Assembly: GCF_001677475.2 (NCBI RefSeq)
Contig: NZ_CP015229.1
Length of the DNA: 64,000 bases
Reading direction: 5' to 3' (one strand)
DNA from: Escherichia coli
Lineage (GTDB): Bacteria > Pseudomonadota > Gammaproteobacteria > Enterobacterales > Enterobacteriaceae
Numbering within the stretch: position 1 is the stretch's first letter; every line of letters starts with the position of its first letter. This document shows, one piece after another, positions 14,136 through 31,409 of the stretch. The translations under genes and the position numbers were made by a program. The notes below the pieces were generated by a model. The model had not been told where the DNA came from and searched no databases. It worked only from the letters and a program-made list of their open reading frames with translations.

Positions 14136-14379
14136 TTAACGGAAACCAGTGAGTTCCTTTCGATGTCTGAATTTCCTTGGCGTGACATAGGTATATCCTG
14201 TAATTACTAAACCAATATTTTGTGAGCGACGTTTATAATATTCGAGTTCTTGCTCAGAGATGGTTCCATCAGGATTAGCTGACCAGGTCGTCATAGGAGC
14301 CATAACGATACGATTACATGGCTTTGTTTTTTTCTGTCAGCATAAAAGGAGGAAACAGTGATAAGTGTTTATTTGTCAT
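14136..14379 (-). pseudogene. Remnant of an OYE-family NADH:flavin oxidoreductase N-terminus (frameshifted, 3'-truncated)
   Basis: Two short ORFs in frames differing by 1 nt: MTNKHLSLFPPFMLTEKNKAM* then (C)NRIVMAPMTTWSANPDGTISEQELEYYKRRSQNIGLVITGYTYVTP..., resembling the NRIxMAPM...YY..RA..GLIISE N-terminal region of Old Yellow Enzyme-type reductases; similarity ends after about 65 residues. Confidence 0.45.
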
Positions 14380-14672
14380 GACAATACCTCAAATGTTTAT
14401 CTGATTTTGATGCGTATATTTTAACTGGTTAGTTGTTACCAGCTTTGGAACCAAGATTTTTGGCTTTGTTTTTATTTATAATTACTGTTAGTGCTTTTAT
14501 TGAATTTATGGTGGAGAAAAGAGTAAAAAAAGAAAGTTAATGATGTGTGTCAGAATATCGGTAAGAAGAATGACGCAATCGTGAGGATACGTTTATTCAT
14601 AATAAATCTCCTGAAAGTTTAGAATTATTTTCTATACAGCCAGATTATCATTGTTACTAATAATGTGGTTAA

Positions 14673-16616
<1,944 letters not shown>

Positions 16617-22644: not shown

Positions 22645-23514
22645 GTGGAATTTTCCGTATTAAGTAACAATCTGAAAATGCCGATGATGGGATTTGGTGT
22701 TTTTCAGGTTACCGATAAAAACGTGTGCAAACAGTCAGTGTTGAACGCTATCCGCACGGGTTATCGACTCATCGACACTGCAGCGGTATACGGTAATGAA
22801 GATGCCGTCGGTGAAGCCGTTCGTGAAGCTATATCTGAAGGTTTATGTACCCGAGATGAGTTATTTATAACGTCTAAATTGTGGGTGCAGGATATGTTGA
22901 ATCAGGATACGGCAGCAGCAGGTATTGAAGCATCATTAAAAAAATCGGGACTAGAATACTTCGACCTCTATTTATTGCATCAGGCTATGCGCGATTATTT
23001 CAGTGCGTGGCGTGCACTCGAAGATGCCTATGAAGAGGGCAAATTAAAAGCAATTGGGGTTTCCAATTTCTACCCTCATGTTCTGGCGAACTTTTGTGAA
23101 ACGGTAAGAGTTAAACCGATGGTCAACCAGGTCGAGTTGCATCCCTATTTTGCCCAACCAGAGGCGCTGGCAACCATGAAGTATTATAACGTGCAGCCTG
23201 AAGCATGGGCTCCGTTAGGTGGGGGACGACATAAACCCTTTGAAAATAATCTGCTTCAGAGTATTGCAGATGCCCATCAAAAATCGATTTCTCAAGTCAT
23301 TCTGCGTTGGAATATTCAACGGGGAGTGGTCGTTATTCCGAAATCGATACATCAACAGCGTATCGAAGAAAATTTTGCTATCTGGGATTTCTCACTGACA
23401 GAGAAAGAAATGGCACAAATTAGTTCGCTTGATTTGGGTTATGTTGGGGAGTCGGTAAAACATTTTAATCCTGAATTTGTTCGTGGTTGTCTTGCTGTAA
23501 AAATACATGATTGA
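22645..23514 (+). CDS. Aldo-keto reductase
   Basis: ORF track frame 22630..23514; start placed at GTG 22645, preceded by GGAGG; motifs GFGVFQ and IDTAAVYGNE. Confidence 0.75.
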   Translation: MEFSVLSNNLKMPMMGFGVFQVTDKNVCKQSVLNAIRTGYRLIDTAAVYGNEDAVGEAVREAISEGLCTRDELFITSKLWVQDMLNQDTAAAGIEASLKKSGLEYFDLYLLHQAMRDYFSAWRALEDAYEEGKLKAIGVSNFYPHVLANFCETVRVKPMVNQVELHPYFAQPEALATMKYYNVQPEAWAPLGGGRHKPFENNLLQSIADAHQKSISQVILRWNIQRGVVVIPKSIHQQRIEENFAIWDFSLTEKEMAQISSLDLGYVGESVKHFNPEFVRGCLAVKIHD

Positions 23515-23673
23515 TATTAATCATGTATTTTACCTGAGACAACAAGAATCTTTTAACAGGGGAGTGATATTGATCTTCACTCTGTCATATCTCCGGTAAT
23601 ATGGCGTCAGGCTTCATCATCAGAAAGGGGGCCTGACGCCTGAAAAAGTGAACAACAGACAGTGTTCTGATTA

Positions 23674-24267
23674 TCAATCTTCAGTTTTTAACGTTGAACT
23701 GGATTCATTACTGTGTTGTTTAAGAATGTCCCGCGCCGAATCTGCCATTATCATGACAGCACCTGCCAGCATCAGAGTATCTTTCAATACCAGACGACCA
23801 GCACCAGATAAATAAGGGAAACCATGATGAGCGTCACCCAATGCGGGTACCCATGCCTCCGGGGTGGTGATTAAAAATGAGAGTGTTACCAGCGGCGTGG
23901 TAAATGCCATCAGCCCTCCCAATAAACCTAACCAGCGATTGACAGGATTAGCCAAAACCAGCAGAGCAATAATCACCTCCACGATGCCAAGACCGTTGGA
24001 AAAACCATAGGTATTATTAGCCGTTTGCCATGCCCTTGCTTCTGGTTTGTATTCGCCTTCGTGAGTCAGATACTGTTTATAGTCTTCTGGGTGTTCATAA
24101 AAGAACGACATTAGTGGACTGTTTGCGACGAATGGTGTAATGCTGTCTGCCTCGTAAGGGACAAACTTTAATAACCCAATCCACATAAAAACAATCGCAA
24201 TACTCAGACGAATCAATGTCAGGCCAATTTTATCTCCCCGACTTAACAGGTGCAGGTATCTTTCCAT
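23674..24267 (-). CDS. rclC: Reactive-chlorine resistance inner membrane protein RclC (DUF417)
   Basis: ORF track 200 aa frame; start placed at MERYLHLLSRGDK... Confidence 0.8.
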   Translation of the reverse strand: MERYLHLLSRGDKIGLTLIRLSIAIVFMWIGLLKFVPYEADSITPFVANSPLMSFFYEHPEDYKQYLTHEGEYKPEARAWQTANNTYGFSNGLGIVEVIIALLVLANPVNRWLGLLGGLMAFTTPLVTLSFLITTPEAWVPALGDAHHGFPYLSGAGRLVLKDTLMLAGAVMIMADSARDILKQHSNESSSTLKTED

Positions 24268-24278
24268 TGTAAACATCC

Positions 24279-24515
24279 TTATTTATACAATACTGCTGTT
24301 GCGGTTGAATTATTATCAATTCGCATCGATGTGACTTTCCAGGATGAAGCATTATATTTTTTGGCCATATCAGCAATGGCATCCTCCAGAACTGTCGGTG
24401 ATGCTGATACTGACGAGACGCTGATATGTTTCAGAATTATTTTATCATCTGCATTGGTGGAAAATGCCATAACGCCAGATAATAGTGTTGCAAATAAAAC
24501 AGATTTTTTAAACAT
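24279..24515 (-). CDS. rclB: Periplasmic DUF1471 protein RclB
   Basis: ORF track frame 24279..24563; start placed at MFKKSVLFATLLSGVMAFS (78 aa, signal peptide); the longer frame begins inside the IS1-like end. Confidence 0.8.
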   Translation of the reverse strand: MFKKSVLFATLLSGVMAFSTNADDKIILKHISVSSVSASPTVLEDAIADMAKKYNASSWKVTSMRIDNNSTATAVLYK

Positions 24516-24563
24516 ATAAAATACCATCAATGAAGTGATTAAGAAGTTAGGTAGTGCATCCAA

Positions 24564-24959
24564 TTAGTAGAACATGTGTTTTTCGATAAACGCTCCGATC
24601 ACTTTTTCGTGGATCTCAACTGAGCGTGAGAAGCAGATTGTTTTACGAGCCAACCGCTTAATGCGGGTGCGTAGCGTCAGATTATTACGCTCAATGCGTT
24701 GGGTGAATATTTTGCCGGTCAGATGCTTATTCTTCGGCACCTCCCGGCCATAGCTGCCCCAGTCATCGCTGGTCAGCATGCCGATGTTGAAGGGTGTAAG
24801 CAGTGCCAGTAGCTCCCGGCACGTTTGATCGGTTCGGGGACCAAAAGTGTAGGCCAGTACACCGCCTGTTTTGGTGTTGTACGCGTACCAGAGCCAGTGT
24901 TGCCGGGCTTTACTGCCAACGTAGCTCCATTGCTCATCAAGCTCGCAGATAAGCGCCAC
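24564..24959 (-). CDS. insB: IS1-family transposase InsB' frame (expressed as an InsAB' fusion by -1 frameshift)
   Basis: ORF track 131 aa MALICELDEQWSYVGSKARQHWLWYAY...; recognisably similar to canonical IS1 InsB (estimated by eye). Confidence 0.8.
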   Translation of the reverse strand: MALICELDEQWSYVGSKARQHWLWYAYNTKTGGVLAYTFGPRTDQTCRELLALLTPFNIGMLTSDDWGSYGREVPKNKHLTGKIFTQRIERNNLTLRTRIKRLARKTICFSRSVEIHEKVIGAFIEKHMFY

Positions 24960-24985
24960 ATCAGCATGGGCAACAGGCGAAGACG

Positions 24986-25258
24986 TTATTCGCTTTGGCG
25001 CGAGTTTTTTAAAGTCCGGATGACGGTGTTAATACCAATTTTCAGTGTCCTGGCGGTATCGCGAACCCCGGCACCATTAAAGGCCATTTCAGTTATCAGC
25101 TCTTTCATACCCGGCTTACGTGCTTGATAAGTATAAGTGAGCTGAAACACACGGTGGCAGTCACGGCAGCGAAATCTGTCACGGCCTTTAGGGTTCTGAC
25201 CATGGCGGTAAACCTGAGCTGACTGACAACGGGGACAATGAATATTAACGCTGGCCAT
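24986..25258 (-). CDS. insA: IS1-family InsA (zinc-finger/HTH transposition inhibitor)
   Basis: ORF track 90 aa MASVNIHCPRCQSAQVYRHG...; CxxC..CxxC; ends ...TLKNSRQSE as in IS1 InsA. Confidence 0.85.
   Translation of the reverse strand: MASVNIHCPRCQSAQVYRHGQNPKGRDRFRCRDCHRVFQLTYTYQARKPGMKELITEMAFNGAGVRDTARTLKIGINTVIRTLKNSRQSE
25004..25010 (-). other. Programmed -1 ribosomal frameshift heptamer A6C (TTTAAAAAAC) of the IS1-family insA/insB'
   Basis: Motif read on the minus strand at the insA/insB' overlap; a -1 shift here joins ...FKKLAPKRITSSPVAHADVALICELDEQW... Confidence 0.7.
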
Positions 25259-25397
25259 GAGATAACCTCAAAAGCCCGTATTATACATCAGATTCAACTA
25301 ATTAGAGACATCACCAGAAGTTATAAAGTAACAGGGAATTAATAAGATTCTTTTCTCTGAGACGCCAGAATATTTGTTCTGGCGTCTGATTTTGAGT

Positions 25398-26723
25398 TTA
25401 TTTAACTAATGAAAATAGATCATTGAGTGATTCGCTCATCGACGGATGAGTAAATATCTGATCGCGTAATATGCTATAAGGCAGCCCGGCATCCATCACC
25501 ATTTTCACTATATTGATCATCTCGTGGGAGTCAACACACAGCAGTGATGCTCCTAATATACGTTGGGTTTTATTATCAACAATCGCTTTTAATACCCCAC
25601 GGGTATCGTTCATCACTCTTGCGCGCGGAATTGCAGCTACAGGCAATGTCACCACCTGAATATCAGCACCACTCTCTCTGGCCTGTTCTTCTGTCATACC
25701 AACCCTGGACAGTGGCGGTGTCATGAATACGGAATAAGGCACATTTTTCCGATCATCAGTACTACGTCTGCCTTCTCCCAGCAACTCATCACGCACAATG
25801 CGGTAATCATCCAGTGAAATATAAGTAAATTGCAGCCCGCCGGTAACATCTCCCATCGCCCAAATATTGTCTGCGGTGGTATGTAATTGCTTGTCAACGA
25901 CAATTGCCCCACGTTCGTTTACTGCGATACCTGCATTTTCTGGATGTAACGAAGCGGTAGCCGGTTGACGACCGGAAGCTATTAACAGTGCATCCACCGC
26001 CAGTTGGGCGTGCTCGCTATGCACTTGCACTTGATTTTCATGGTGACTGATTCGCTCCACATGGGCATTGAGGATAATATCGACGCCCTGATCGCGTAAA
26101 ATCGTCGCGATATTATCAGCAATATCCCGATCTTCCCGAGGCAAAAACAGCGAAGCTGCTTCTAAAATGGTTACCTTGCTGCCAAAATTAGCGAACATAG
26201 AGGCGAACTCAACGCCAATATATCCGCCGCCCAAAATACCTAAATGCCCAGGCAATTCTTTTAGATTAAGTAATCCGGTGCTGTCATATACACCAGGCGT
26301 GGTGGTAATTCCAGGAATTGGCGGAACCACGGTTTGTGCACCGGTATTAATAAAAATTTTCTCGCCATGAATCTCCAGATTTCCCTCAGGCCGATGAACA
26401 CGCAGGCTATTATTATTGATAAACTCCGCCTGGCCGTCGATCACGTCGATATTGGGCATATCCGCAAGATTATGAAAATTCTTATTACGTAAAAAATTAA
26501 CCACTTCATTTTTACGCTGTATGGCACGGACAAAATCTGTGTGCTGCTGTGCGTCATGAACCAATGTTTTGGTTGGGATGCAGCCGATATTAATACAGGT
26601 CCCGCCATACATTGCATTTGATTGTTCGATGAGAGCCACTCGCCAACCTGCTTTTGCCAGCGTGACGGCTAATGTTTTTCCCGCCTTGCCAAAACCAATA
26701 ATAACTGCCTGATATTTATTCAT
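25398..26723 (-). CDS. rclA: Pyridine nucleotide-disulfide oxidoreductase RclA
   Basis: ORF track frame 25398..26750; start at MNKYQAVIIGFGKAGK (Rossmann GxGxxG) preceded by AGGAA. Confidence 0.85.
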   Translation of the reverse strand: MNKYQAVIIGFGKAGKTLAVTLAKAGWRVALIEQSNAMYGGTCINIGCIPTKTLVHDAQQHTDFVRAIQRKNEVVNFLRNKNFHNLADMPNIDVIDGQAEFINNNSLRVHRPEGNLEIHGEKIFINTGAQTVVPPIPGITTTPGVYDSTGLLNLKELPGHLGILGGGYIGVEFASMFANFGSKVTILEAASLFLPREDRDIADNIATILRDQGVDIILNAHVERISHHENQVQVHSEHAQLAVDALLIASGRQPATASLHPENAGIAVNERGAIVVDKQLHTTADNIWAMGDVTGGLQFTYISLDDYRIVRDELLGEGRRSTDDRKNVPYSVFMTPPLSRVGMTEEQARESGADIQVVTLPVAAIPRARVMNDTRGVLKAIVDNKTQRILGASLLCVDSHEMINIVKMVMDAGLPYSILRDQIFTHPSMSESLNDLFSLVK

Positions 26724-26948
26724 GATGATTTCCTGTCGAAACGCGTTCATTTGACATCATGACTATAGACGCAAAAGAGCAAATAACATTTCTTCACAAC
26801 GCTTGATATTTTGTCTTATCGTCTGGTATTTTCTTTTTCTTAATCAGAATCACAAAACAAAAATCATGATTAACTATTTGATGATATTACATTAATTATT
26901 TACTAAGATTGTTGGTGTTTGTAATCAAAAACCACTCAGGAGTCTGAT

Positions 26949-27803
26949 ATGGATGCCCTTAGCCGTTTGTTGATGCTTAACGCTCCACAAGGAACGATCG
27001 ATAAGAATTGCGTGTTAGGAAGTGACTGGCAGCTTCCACATGGTGCCGGGGAATTATCGGTTATTCGTTGGCATGCGTTAACGCAAGGAGCGGCGAAGCT
27101 GGAAATGCCGACGGGAGAGATTTTTACATTACGCCCGGGAAATGTGGTCCTGCTACCACAAAATTCAGCTCATCGCCTGAGTCATGTCGATAATGAATCG
27201 ACCTGTATTGTCTGTGGCACTCTTCGGCTGCAACATTCGGCGCGTTATTTTTTAACGTCTTTGCCGGAAACGCTGTTTTTAGCACCAGTTAACCACAGCG
27301 TGGAATATAACTGGCTGAGGGAGGCGATCCCGTTTTTACAACAGGAATCCAGATCGGCGATGCCGGGAGTGGATGCACTGTGTAGCCAGATCTGCGCTAC
27401 ATTCTTTACCCTCGCGGTGCGTGAGTGGATTGCACAGGTTAATACTGAGAAAAACATTCTCAGTTTGCTTCTGCATCCACGTCTTGGTGCGGTAATACAG
27501 CAAATGCTGGAAATGCCAGGACACGCCTGGACCGTCGAATCGCTGGCCAGCATCGCCCACATGTCCCGGGCAAGTTTTGCCCAGCTTTTCCGTGATGTTT
27601 CCGGAACCACGCCGCTGGCTGTATTAACAAAGTTGCGTCTACAAATAGCGGCCCAGATGTTTTCCCGGGAAACGCTCCCTGTTGTGGTGATCGCTGAGTC
27701 AGTAGGCTATGCCAGTGAATCATCTTTTCACAAGGCGTTTGTCCGCGAGTTTGGTTGTACCCCGGGCGAATATCGGGAAAGGGTCAGACAGCTTGCACCC
27801 TGA
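26949..27803 (+). CDS. rclR: AraC-family redox-sensing regulator RclR
   Basis: ORF track 284 aa; divergent from rclA. Confidence 0.85.
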   Translation: MDALSRLLMLNAPQGTIDKNCVLGSDWQLPHGAGELSVIRWHALTQGAAKLEMPTGEIFTLRPGNVVLLPQNSAHRLSHVDNESTCIVCGTLRLQHSARYFLTSLPETLFLAPVNHSVEYNWLREAIPFLQQESRSAMPGVDALCSQICATFFTLAVREWIAQVNTEKNILSLLLHPRLGAVIQQMLEMPGHAWTVESLASIAHMSRASFAQLFRDVSGTTPLAVLTKLRLQIAAQMFSRETLPVVVIAESVGYASESSFHKAFVREFGCTPGEYRERVRQLAP

Positions 27804-28321
27804 ATAAAACCGCCAGGAATCGGAGCAAAGATAATCCGCATTCCGGGTGTTGTGAGCCTTTCAGCTATTTATATTTCCAGGTTTTTTATATGTTTTTTTG
27901 AAGTGGTCTGGCTTAGTAATTAAATAAAAGATACAAACTAAATTGCTTCAATTAAATAAAATCCCGACTATTACTTGATACGTGATTATTGTCGGTAATT
28001 TTGTTTGTACACCATCAGTGTATATCTCAATAACCCCTGAATAAGTAGCTCTGAATAGGTATAAGGGATGTAGCCATTTTTAAATGGATTTCTTATGCCA
28101 AAAATGATCGTCGATTTCCCCATAAAATGTGAGCGATGCCGAAAGAAATAAAATTAGTTATTGCATTTGAAGTTTGGATGAAAGATTATCATTTGTCATA
28201 CAAATGAGGGGTGGTATGTTGCTAGCCAATTAAAAAAGAACGCCATATTTATTGATGATTGCTCCCCCGGAAGGGGGGAACCATCGGGCATAAATGGGCA
28301 TGAAGTAATGGAGTATTAGTT

Positions 28322-29041
28322 GTGAATGTCAATTTCTTTGTCACCTGTATTGGTGACGCCCTGAAATCAAGAATGGCACGAGACTCCGTGCTGCTACTGG
28401 AAAAACTCGGCTGTCGCGTAAATTTCCCGGAGAAACAGGGATGCTGCGGTCAGCCTGCGATCAATAGTGGTTATATCAAAGAAGCGATTCCAGGGATGAA
28501 AAATCTGATCGCCGCACTGGAGGATAACGACGATCCCATTATTTCACCGGCTGGCTCTTGCACCTATGCCGTAAAAAGTTACCCGACGTATCTGGCGGAT
28601 GAACCTGAATGGGCATCACGAGCCGAAAAGGTTGCCGCGCGTATGCAGGATCTCACCTCTTTTATTGTTAATAAATTAGGGGTAGTCGATGTAGGTGCCA
28701 GTTTGCAAGGGAGAGCGGTGTATCACCCATCTTGTAGCCTGGCCCGTAAGCTGGGGGTGAAGGACGAGCCACTTACGCTGCTAAAAAATGTGCGTGGACT
28801 GGAGCTGTTGACCTTTGCTGAACAGGATACCTGCTGCGGATTTGGCGGCACGTTCTCGGTCAAAATGGCCGAAATATCCGGCGAGATGGTGAAAGAAAAG
28901 GTTGCGCACCTGATGGAAGTCCGCCCTGAGTATTTAATTGGTGCTGACGTGAGTTGCCTGCTGAACATCAGTGGGCGATTACAACGGGAAGGGCAGAAAG
29001 TCAAAGTGATGCATATTTCTGAAGTGTTGATGAGCCGCTGA
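28322..29041 (+). CDS. ykgE: Cys-rich (CCG-domain) LutA-like protein YkgE
   Basis: ORF track 239 aa, GTG start; motifs CCGQ and CCGFGG. Confidence 0.85.
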   Translation: MNVNFFVTCIGDALKSRMARDSVLLLEKLGCRVNFPEKQGCCGQPAINSGYIKEAIPGMKNLIAALEDNDDPIISPAGSCTYAVKSYPTYLADEPEWASRAEKVAARMQDLTSFIVNKLGVVDVGASLQGRAVYHPSCSLARKLGVKDEPLTLLKNVRGLELLTFAEQDTCCGFGGTFSVKMAEISGEMVKEKVAHLMEVRPEYLIGADVSCLLNISGRLQREGQKVKVMHISEVLMSR

Positions 29042-29051
29042 GGATATAAAG

Positions 29052-30479
29052 ATGTCGATCAAAACCAGTAATACAGATTTTAAGACACGCATCCGTCAGC
29101 AAATTGAAGATCCGATCATGCGCAAAGCGGTGGCAAACGCGCAGCAGCGTATTGGGGCAAATCGGCAAAAAATGGTCGATGAATTGGGGCACTGGGAGGA
29201 GTGGCGCGATCGGGCCGCCCAGATACGTGATCATGTTCTGAGTAATCTCGACGCTTATCTGTACCAGCTCTCAGAAAAAGTGACGCAAAACGGCGGTCAC
29301 GTCTATTTTGCAAAAACCAAAGAAGACGCTACCCGCTACATTTTACAGGTTGCCCAACGCAAAAATGCCCGGAAGGTGGTGAAATCTAAATCGATGGTAA
29401 CCGAAGAGATTGGTGTCAATCATGTGTTGCAGGATGCTGGCATTCAGGTGATTGAAACCGATCTGGGTGAATATATTCTCCAGCTGGATCAAGATCCGCC
29501 CTCTCATGTTGTGGTCCCGGCAATTCATAAAGATCGCCATCAGATCCGTCGAGTGCTAAACGAACGTCTGGGCTATGAGGGGCCGGAAACGCCTGAAGCG
29601 ATGACCTTATTCATCCGGCAAAAAATCCGCGAAGATTTCCTCAGTGCTGAAATAGGTATTACCGGCTGTAATTTCGCGGTGGCAGAGACAGGTTCGGTAT
29701 GCCTGGTGACCAATGAAGGTAATGCGCGAATGTGTACCACGCTGCCTAAAACGCATATTGCAGTGATGGGAATGGAGCGTATTGCCCCCACGTTTGCCGA
29801 GGTAGATGTATTGATCGCCATGCTGGCGCGCAGTGCCGTTGGTGCACGTTTGACGGGATACAACACCTGGCTGACAGGACCGCGCGAAGCGGGGCACGTT
29901 GATGGTCCTGAAGAGTTTCATCTGGTTATTGTCGATAACGGACGTTCTGAGGTGCTGGCCTCTGAATTTCGGGATGTGCTGCGCTGTATTCGCTGCGGGG
30001 CTTGTATGAATACTTGTCCGGCATATCGCCATATTGGCGGTCATGGATATGGCTCTATTTATCCAGGGCCAATTGGTGCGGTGATTTCTCCGCTACTTGG
30101 CGGCTATAAAGATTTTAAAGATTTACCCTATGCCTGCTCTTTATGCACTGCTTGTGACAGCGTGTGTCCGGTGCGTATTCCGCTGTCAAAACTGATTTTG
30201 CGTCATCGTCGGGTGATGGCTGAAAAAGGGATCACCGCAAAAGCAGAGCAACGGGCGATAAAAATGTTCGCTTATGCCAATAGTCATCCAGGATTGTGGA
30301 AAGTCGGGATGATGGCTGGTGCTCATGCGGCAAGCTGGTTTATCAATGGCGGCAAAACACCACTCAAATTTGGCGCGATTAGCGAATGGATGGAAGCACG
30401 CGATCTTCCTGAAGCTGACGGAGAGAGTTTCCGTAGTTGGTTTAAGAAACATCAGGCGCAGGAGAAAAAGAATGGATAA
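29052..30479 (+). CDS. ykgF: 4Fe-4S ferredoxin-type LutB-like protein YkgF
   Basis: ORF track 475 aa; CIRCGACMNTCP and CSLCTACDSVCP motifs. Confidence 0.85.
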   Translation: MSIKTSNTDFKTRIRQQIEDPIMRKAVANAQQRIGANRQKMVDELGHWEEWRDRAAQIRDHVLSNLDAYLYQLSEKVTQNGGHVYFAKTKEDATRYILQVAQRKNARKVVKSKSMVTEEIGVNHVLQDAGIQVIETDLGEYILQLDQDPPSHVVVPAIHKDRHQIRRVLNERLGYEGPETPEAMTLFIRQKIREDFLSAEIGITGCNFAVAETGSVCLVTNEGNARMCTTLPKTHIAVMGMERIAPTFAEVDVLIAMLARSAVGARLTGYNTWLTGPREAGHVDGPEEFHLVIVDNGRSEVLASEFRDVLRCIRCGACMNTCPAYRHIGGHGYGSIYPGPIGAVISPLLGGYKDFKDLPYACSLCTACDSVCPVRIPLSKLILRHRRVMAEKGITAKAEQRAIKMFAYANSHPGLWKVGMMAGAHAASWFINGGKTPLKFGAISEWMEARDLPEADGESFRSWFKKHQAQEKKNG

Positions 30480-31167
30480 TCGGAGCGAATTTTTGAATAA
30501 CGTTGCTCAGGCACTGGGTCGCCCGCTGCGACTTGAACCGCAAGCAGAAGATGCGCCGCTTAACAACTATGCTAACGAGCGGCTTACCCAACTTAACCAA
30601 CAGCAGCGCTGTGACGCGTTTATTCAGTTTACCAGCGATGTTATGTTGACGCGCTGTGAGCTGACCAGCGAGGCGAAGGCGGCAGAAGCTGCAATACGTC
30701 TGTGTAAAGAGCTGGGAGATCAGTCGGTCGTGATTAGCGGTGACACGAGGCTGGAGGAATTGGGGATTAGCGAACGTTTGCAGCAGGAATGCAATGCCGT
30801 TGTTTGGGATCCGGCGAAAGGTGCCGAGAATATCTCGCAGGCAGAGCAGGCTAAAGTGGGTGTCGTGTATGCTGAATATGGTTTAACCGAATCGGGAGGC
30901 GTGGTTCTTTTTTCCGCCGCCGAGCGCGGGCGTTCATTGAGCCTGCTCCCGGAATCTTCTCTTTTTATCCTGCGTAAAAGCACAATCCTGCCGCGTGTAG
31001 CGCAACTCGCAGAAAAATTGCATCAGAAAGCGCAGGCCGGTGAACGAATGCCGTCCTGCATTAACATCATTAGCGGCCCTAGTTCAACGGCGGATATTGA
31101 GCTTATCAAAGTCGTCGGGGTTCATGGCCCGGTGAAAGCGGTGTATCTGATTATTGAGGATTGCTGA
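30472..31167 (+). CDS. ykgG: LutC-like protein YkgG
   Basis: ORF track frame 30319..31167; start at MDNRSEFLNNV overlapping the ykgF stop (ATGGATAA). Confidence 0.8.
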   Translation: MDNRSEFLNNVAQALGRPLRLEPQAEDAPLNNYANERLTQLNQQQRCDAFIQFTSDVMLTRCELTSEAKAAEAAIRLCKELGDQSVVISGDTRLEELGISERLQQECNAVVWDPAKGAENISQAEQAKVGVVYAEYGLTESGGVVLFSAAERGRSLSLLPESSLFILRKSTILPRVAQLAEKLHQKAQAGERMPSCINIISGPSSTADIELIKVVGVHGPVKAVYLIIEDC

Positions 31168-31409
31168 GTGAGATATGAAGTCTGGACATAAACCTGAAGG
31201 CGGCATACGAGGTTGTGAATAGCGTTAAGGACAACCTGACTTAACCCCGTTCTGTCATGGTTATGCTCCTCTTCTTTAAATATCCTGGCATTAGTAATGC
31301 CAGGATATTTACAGTGAAAAAGACAGGCATCCATTCCTGAAAACGGGTTCCCTTCCCGGTCATTGTCACTTCAGTTTTATACAGGCACTCTCTATCAGAA
31401 TGCTGTTTA

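Follow-up and report, generated by a model that had tools for sequence, protein, structure and literature searches.

The window, i.e., the whole stretch of 64 kb of Escherichia coli DNA that was analysed, contains an rcl locus in which rclA, rclB and rclC follow one another and rclR lies divergently, an arrangement also found in K-12 and in annotated E. coli loci. The features of the region are collected in Table 1. In the literature, the rcl genes are taken to be a single operon under the control of RclR (Refs PMC12096828; PMC7527725). Transcription from the rclA promoter is induced more than 100-fold by reactive chlorine (PMC7527725), and both RclB and RclC contribute to resistance against HOCl and HOSCN (PMC12096828; PMC7527725). 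In K-12, the RNA of rclB and rclC was found at a level about tenfold below that of rclA, and the authors suspected additional regulation, which was left unexplained (PMC12096828). All the rcl genes of the window are open from start to stop, and the absence of decay in rclB and rclC would fit a recent insertion and a retained function alike.

The spacer between rclA and rclB is occupied by an insertion sequence. From the rclA stop codon (25398-25400) to the element there are 82 nt, and from the element to the rclB start codon (24515-24513) there are 34 nt, by which the distance between the two genes is enlarged by 774 bp. The earlier note on this DNA, made from the sequence alone, had given the first of these distances correctly and the second as 35 bp, which is essentially right. 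Directly after the rclA stop lies a perfect hairpin, located upstream of the insertion and unaltered by it. It resembles a terminator on the plus strand only, where it has a T-run, and has no U-run in the direction of the rcl genes. As an observation on its own, this hairpin may bear on the tenfold drop from rclA to rclBC RNA reported for K-12 (PMC12096828). Scanned against Rfam at E<=1, positions 23000-28000 yielded no match within the spacer or the element. A match to mir-312 with 24 bits, where the gathering score is 55, was discarded as a sub-threshold chance match.

Table 1. Features of the rcl locus and of the insertion sequence between rclA and rclB. Positions refer to the 64-kb window unless a homologous locus is named.
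Feature	Position	Strand	Comparison or support
rclC, intact, 197 aa	23674-24267	-	192/197 identical to K-12 RclC
rclB, intact, 78 aa	24279-24515	-	75/78 identical to K-12 RclB
Target-site duplication, copy on rclB side, AGAAGTTA on plus strand	24542-24549	.	
IS1-family insertion sequence, complete, IS1N type, 766 bp	24550-25315	-	765/766 identical to copy in SMN152SH1
Right inverted repeat (IRR), GGTAGTGCATCCAATTAGTAGAA on plus strand	24550-24572	-	23-nt inverted-repeat pair
InsAB' fusion coding region, 231 aa after -1 shift at A6C, with DDE_Tnp_IS1	24564-25258	-	
insA, 90 aa, zinc ribbon and helix-turn-helix	24986-25258	-	Open reading frame and domain matches
A6C motif of -1 programmed frameshift near end of insA, TTTAAAAAAC	25004-25013 (element positions 303-312)	-	
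TATAAT hexamer, presumed -10 of weak insA promoter overlapping IRL	25280-25285 (element positions 31-36)	-	
Left inverted repeat (IRL), GGTGATGTCTCTAATTAGTTGAA	25293-25315	-	23-nt inverted-repeat pair
Target-site duplication, copy on rclA side, AGAAGTTA on plus strand, TAACTTCT in rcl orientation	25316-25323	.	
Perfect hairpin of 11-12 bp directly after rclA stop	25360-25387	.	-19.8 kcal/mol, z -4.7
rclA, intact, 441 aa	25398-26723	-	437/441 identical to K-12 RclA
rclR, divergent activator gene, intact open reading frame of 284 aa	26949-27803	+	Homologous loci annotated rclR
Spacers homologous to window 24516-25397 with canonical IS1	L001 1946-2720; L006 2596 onward; L007 2541 onward		

The element lies on the minus strand, co-directional with rclA, rclB and rclC, and is the only copy of its kind within the 64-kb window (n=1). 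Its inverted repeats are placed exactly at both ends and are 74% complementary over 23 nt. Read on the minus strand, the element starts with GGTGATGTCTCTAATTAG and finishes with ...CTAATTGGATGCACTACC. A direct repeat of 8 bp, identical in both copies, abuts the element on either side. Another copy of the element, in SMN152SH1, likewise has 8 bp duplicated at its flanks, though of another sequence (GAATTAAC). A single base distinguishes the window element from the widespread copy, namely T instead of C at position 25308, which is position 8 of IRL. This T adds one more mismatch between IRL and IRR and, being 17 nt upstream of the TATAAT hexamer, falls at the place expected for a -35. The hexamer itself aligns with TATGAT of IS1A and is presumed to be the -10 of the insA promoter. 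Another promoter-like match, ATGAGA and TATTAT separated by 16 nt, was noticed at 25257-25284 on the plus strand, pointing outward from the left end and antisense to the 3' end of rclA. Being one of nine such matches where chance gives 6.5, it is probably meaningless.

The coding content is that of an IS1-family element. The reading frame of insA closes at element position 330, and that of insB', entered by the -1 shift, runs on without interruption until the stop codon at 24564-24566. The conceptual InsAB' protein matched the NCBIfam family model NF033558 (transpos_IS1) with 261 bits, at a cutoff of 100, over profile positions 1-199 of 199. All three IS1 domains of Pfam were recovered essentially at full length, i.e., PF03811 Zn_ribbon_InsA at residues 1-35, PF12759 HTH_Tnp_IS1 at residues 42-84, and PF03400 DDE_Tnp_IS1 at residues 102-231, the last covering model positions 1-131 of 131 with an E-value of 2e-75. 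The catalytic residues of InsAB', D in CELDEQW, D in TSDDWG and E in TQRIERNN, align with those of IS1A. PGAP annotates the copy in SMN152SH1 as an IS1 family transposase and marks a 'programmed frameshift'. The protein collection contains the 231-aa fusion in exactly this form, as an IS1 family transposase, and the exact InsA protein was found on at least 1000 contigs. In the IS1 family, InsA binds to the terminal repeats, where it represses the weak promoter in the left one and acts as a competitor for the ends, and the transposase InsAB', which moves the element, is made only when the ribosome slips by -1 at A6C. For IS1 itself, rare slippage at A6C has been described to yield the DDE transposase InsAB', and its own promoter to be extremely weak and repressed by InsA (PMC12428005). 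The marks of an IS1-family member found in the element are the match to the family model, the domains, insA and insB' with A6C, repeats of about 23 bp starting with GGT, and an 8-bp target duplication, which was checked at the empty site. The description in the earlier note of a 766-bp IS1-family element with insA/insB', the A6C heptamer, imperfect terminal inverted repeats and an 8-bp direct repeat was thus borne out in each of its parts.

The same note had judged InsA by eye to be diverged from that of canonical IS1, and the alignments agree with it. Compared with IS1A from strain Z247, identity was 57% at the nucleotide level, and InsAB' was 45% identical to the IS1A fusion derived from the Z247 DNA. 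Canonical IS1 (IS1A, IS1E and IS1R, of E. coli K-12 and R100) has a length of about 768 bp and, as in our element, imperfect repeats of about 23 bp starting with GGT. It likewise has insA, the A6C -1 frameshift and insB', encodes zinc ribbon, helix-turn-helix and DDE domains, duplicates 8-9 bp of the target and prefers AT-rich targets. The difference lies in the sequence, which agrees only to the extent given above, and so whatever is taken over from IS1 regarding polarity, promoter strength and frameshift rate is extrapolation for this element.

The closest relatives were found among sequences labelled IS1N. By the rule used in ISfinder, isoforms share about 95% or more of amino acids and/or 90% or more of nucleotides with the reference. 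InsAB' was 95% identical (220/231) to an IS1N-family transposase of Shigella dysenteriae, and at the DNA level the E. coli plasmid pB379_2 has an IS1N-family element that agrees with ours to 92.3% over 766 nt, both values referring to sequences which PGAP labels as IS1N family and not to the ISfinder reference. Shigella dysenteriae and Klebsiella have proteins named 'IS1-like element IS1N family transposase' that share the 90% cluster of InsAB', and the name 'iso-IS1N protein insA' belongs to an InsA that is closely related and likewise of the same 90% cluster. IS1N, the iso-IS1 of Shigella dysenteriae, is of the same length class and organisation as the window element and has the same A6C motif in the same context, whereas exact copies of the window element are called by PGAP only 'IS1 family transposase', not IS1N. 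By formal naming the element may be an IS1N isoform or a relative with a name of its own.

Near-identical copies (765/766) occur in many E. coli chromosomes and plasmids. Any match to the element was found in 1300 of the 5426 complete E. coli genomes, and in 748 of them a copy extended over 80% or more of its length. Several STEC-type strains from cattle and humans carry at least 40 copies per record, and the existence of genomes with so many near-identical copies (at least 40 per chromosome) argues that this type of element is active. The plasmid-borne copies were mostly from Escherichia, with others from Klebsiella, Shigella, Pantoea, Enterobacter and further genera. Judged by these sequence comparisons, the element is already known and common, and not a new type.

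The insertion itself could be reconstructed to the base. The uninterrupted site of K-12 reads, in rcl orientation, ...CTCTATAACTTCTTAATCAC... with a single TAACTTCT, while the window reads ...TTTA(TAACTTCT)-element-(TAACTTCT)TAATCAC. When the element and one of the duplicates were deleted in silico, several E. coli chromosomes matched the resulting empty site of 140 nt in 140/140 positions. The 8-bp repeat did not arise by chance but is a genuine target-site duplication, as K-12 and other E. coli have one copy of it. The remark in the earlier note that K-12 has no insertion sequence here proved correct in the comparison of the K-12 rclA-rclB region. The mode of insertion is ordinary and of the textbook kind.

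Among the genomes having the site, 5088 of 5110 were uninterrupted, including MG1655 and DH10B, and the intact site was missing in the remaining 22. The element was found at the rclA-rclB site in none of the 5,426 complete E. coli genomes, in a search with a 1.6-kb query spanning both junctions, of which no record covered 80% or more. Exact patterns of the left and the right junction gave no match in a collection of species-representative genomes and in a metagenome collection; the right junction was scanned as well because the left pattern held the private T at position 8 of IRL. The earlier note had named presence of the element at this site in K-12 and most E. coli as the finding that would speak against it, and the counts point the other way. 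The nearest relatives, SMN152SH1, SMN013SH2, SMN197SH3 and 2014C-3011, each carry at least 40 copies of the element and have an empty rclA-rclB site.

That the duplication is perfect, and that the element departs from other copies in one base only, speaks for a recent insertion, and from its distribution the insertion looks specific to a lineage or a strain. An ancestral presence of the element here, or an artefact of assembly, is a very unlikely alternative to a recent and real transposition. In favour of it, the host lineage is not closely represented among the complete genomes compared (98.9% at best over 5.9 kb). However, the duplication is perfect, both junctions are clean, and only one base separates the element from its other copies. 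An old residence is further opposed by the empty site in 5088/5110 genomes and in the nearest relatives, which are themselves rich in this element, and a misassembled repeat would not produce a duplication from which the empty site is rebuilt exactly. We therefore regard it as virtually certain that an IS1N-type member of the IS1 family has transposed into the rclA-rclB spacer.

Regarding the host, the best match to the 5.9 kb adjoining the insertion (25324-31200) among the 5,426 complete genomes was 98.9% identical and none reached 99%, whilst matches with full coverage of the 20-kb flanks were 97.2-97.7% identical. The latter values were first read as a sign of a very divergent lineage. This reading was softened, as hits are ranked in favour of coverage, several strains match the 140-nt spacer at 100% and the best match over 5.9 kb reaches 98.9%. 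The best matches come from strains of cattle and humans with at least 40 copies of the element each. It appears that the host belongs to an E. coli lineage for which the collection has no close complete-genome relative.

Two more differences were seen elsewhere in the window, in comparison with the ETEC isolate L7_E1373. At 14174-14487 about 3.3 kb are missing, comprising genes for an NADH-dependent flavin oxidoreductase, an alpha/beta hydrolase and a LysR regulator, and a remnant of 296 bp is left at 93% identity. At about 15734-15744 approximately 0.9 kb is missing, and with it one gene of a neighbouring pair for aldo/keto reductases. Neither of these two positions showed an evident mobile element.

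Without the element, the rclA-rclB spacer is 108 bp long with 31.5% G+C, and the 60 nt around the insertion site have 25% G+C, which places them among the lowest 1% of all 60-nt windows in the 64 kb. IS1 favours AT-rich targets. A preference of this kind is ascribed to IS1 through references cited in PMC9330008. At least three further E. coli records, Z247, pKL53-L and 2018-18.25PC, show independent insertions of canonical IS1 in this spacer. In Z247 the inserted element is IS1A, in the opposite orientation and with the duplication AATTCTTA, 2 bp off the site of the window. On plasmid pKL53-L, IS1A joins 2 nt before the ATG of rclB with no rclB behind it, and in 2018-18.25PC IS1 joins about 30 bp upstream, its other end abutting the region upstream of paoA. 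The latter arrangement indicates that a deletion adjacent to IS1 has taken out rclBC and more. The spacer is a recurrent target of IS1, and target preference is the simplest reason for it.

Insertions of IS1 are classically known to be strongly polar in both orientations. Transcripts from the RclR-activated rclA promoter would have to cross 774 extra bases to reach rclB, and beyond the insA stop about 435 nt of element RNA, together with the 34-nt leader of rclB (about 470 nt in all), would be almost untranslated. Such an untranslated stretch is the classical setting for Rho-dependent polarity, from which we infer that the oxidant-induced expression of rclB and rclC would be lowered. What remains of rclBC expression would consist of residual read-through and of weak, InsA-repressed transcription from the promoter of the element. 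Judged from the anatomy of the locus, a substantial polar effect on rclBC appears to have somewhat better than even odds. The idea in the earlier note that the insertion may uncouple rclBC from the RclR-activated promoter is thereby plausible. The classical polar IS1 insertions in gal and lac likewise place the insertion sequence between promoter-proximal and distal genes of one transcription unit. Unlike them, the present insertion is intergenic and breaks no coding sequence, its polarity is deduced from the arrangement, and the rcl unit already drops tenfold from rclA to rclBC in K-12 (PMC12096828).

No intrinsic terminator in the sense direction was predicted inside the element by the promoter and terminator scan, so that polarity would rest wholly on Rho. 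In a sliding window taken as a proxy for Rho loading, C exceeded G in stretches downstream of insA, up to 35% C against 22% G, and the C/G ratio reached a maximum of 1.59; the profile was unremarkable and not distinctive. With no sense terminator and such a profile, the size of the effect is not predictable. The consensus scan for promoters gave 9 promoter-like sites where 6.5 were expected, which carries little weight either way, and a promoter for rclBC beyond those recognised could alter this picture.

The insertion might also be neutral, either by sufficient read-through, or by an rclBC promoter within the retained 34 nt, or by regulation of rclBC independent of rclA. We consider neutrality rather unlikely. 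Both rclB and rclC are intact, no sense terminator was predicted in the element, and the rclBC RNA about tenfold below rclA in K-12 is an unexplained complexity in itself (PMC12096828). On the other hand, a leader of 34 nt is too short for a full promoter and a ribosome-binding site, and TATAAC, the one hexamer in the spacer with a good resemblance to a -10, lies partly within the target that was duplicated, its intact copy being now upstream of the element. The classical polarity of IS1 insertions in operons also speaks against neutrality. Clearly improbable is that the insertion re-drives rclBC into constitutive, RclR-independent expression from a promoter inside the element or from a fusion promoter at its right end, with the -35 in the repeat and the -10 in the flank. 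IS1 and IS1-like elements do form fusion promoters that activate neighbouring genes (PMC9330008), the element is in sense orientation with a perfect TATAAT at its positions 31-36, and transcripts from its promoter could reach rclB, since no sense terminator is predicted. However, the consensus scan found no promoter-like site on the minus, i.e., rcl, strand from the right repeat across the junction to rclB, which is weak counter-evidence, and the best candidates picked by eye at this junction match only 2-3 of 6 positions per hexamer. The promoter of IS1 is, moreover, extremely weak and repressed by InsA (PMC12428005), and the untranslated insB' stretch would expose such transcripts to Rho as well.

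More speculative, and held by us to be quite doubtful, is that oxidant stress drives transcription of insA and insAB' by read-in from the chlorine-induced promoter, directly downstream of which the element lies in sense orientation. This would make it a stress-inducible copy with rclBC uncoupled, and relatedly the four hits in the spacer, this one included, could reflect selection for uncoupling in place of a mere preference for AT-rich targets. In the literature we found no paper naming both rclB and IS1, only incidental mentions of IS1 variant names, and nothing relevant on IS1 polarity. Taken as a whole, insertion of an IS1N-type element, with a polar effect on rclBC as its likeliest though much less certain consequence, is the best explanation of the locus, and we put its probability at about 85%.

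The significance beyond strain-level annotation is small, since the element is common and already annotated. The recurrent insertions in the rclA-rclB spacer make a small but checkable case of the AT-rich preference of IS1. In this strain rclB and rclC are physically separated from their only known inducible promoter, and the strain would thereby offer a natural test of how far rclBC expression depends on read-through from rclA.
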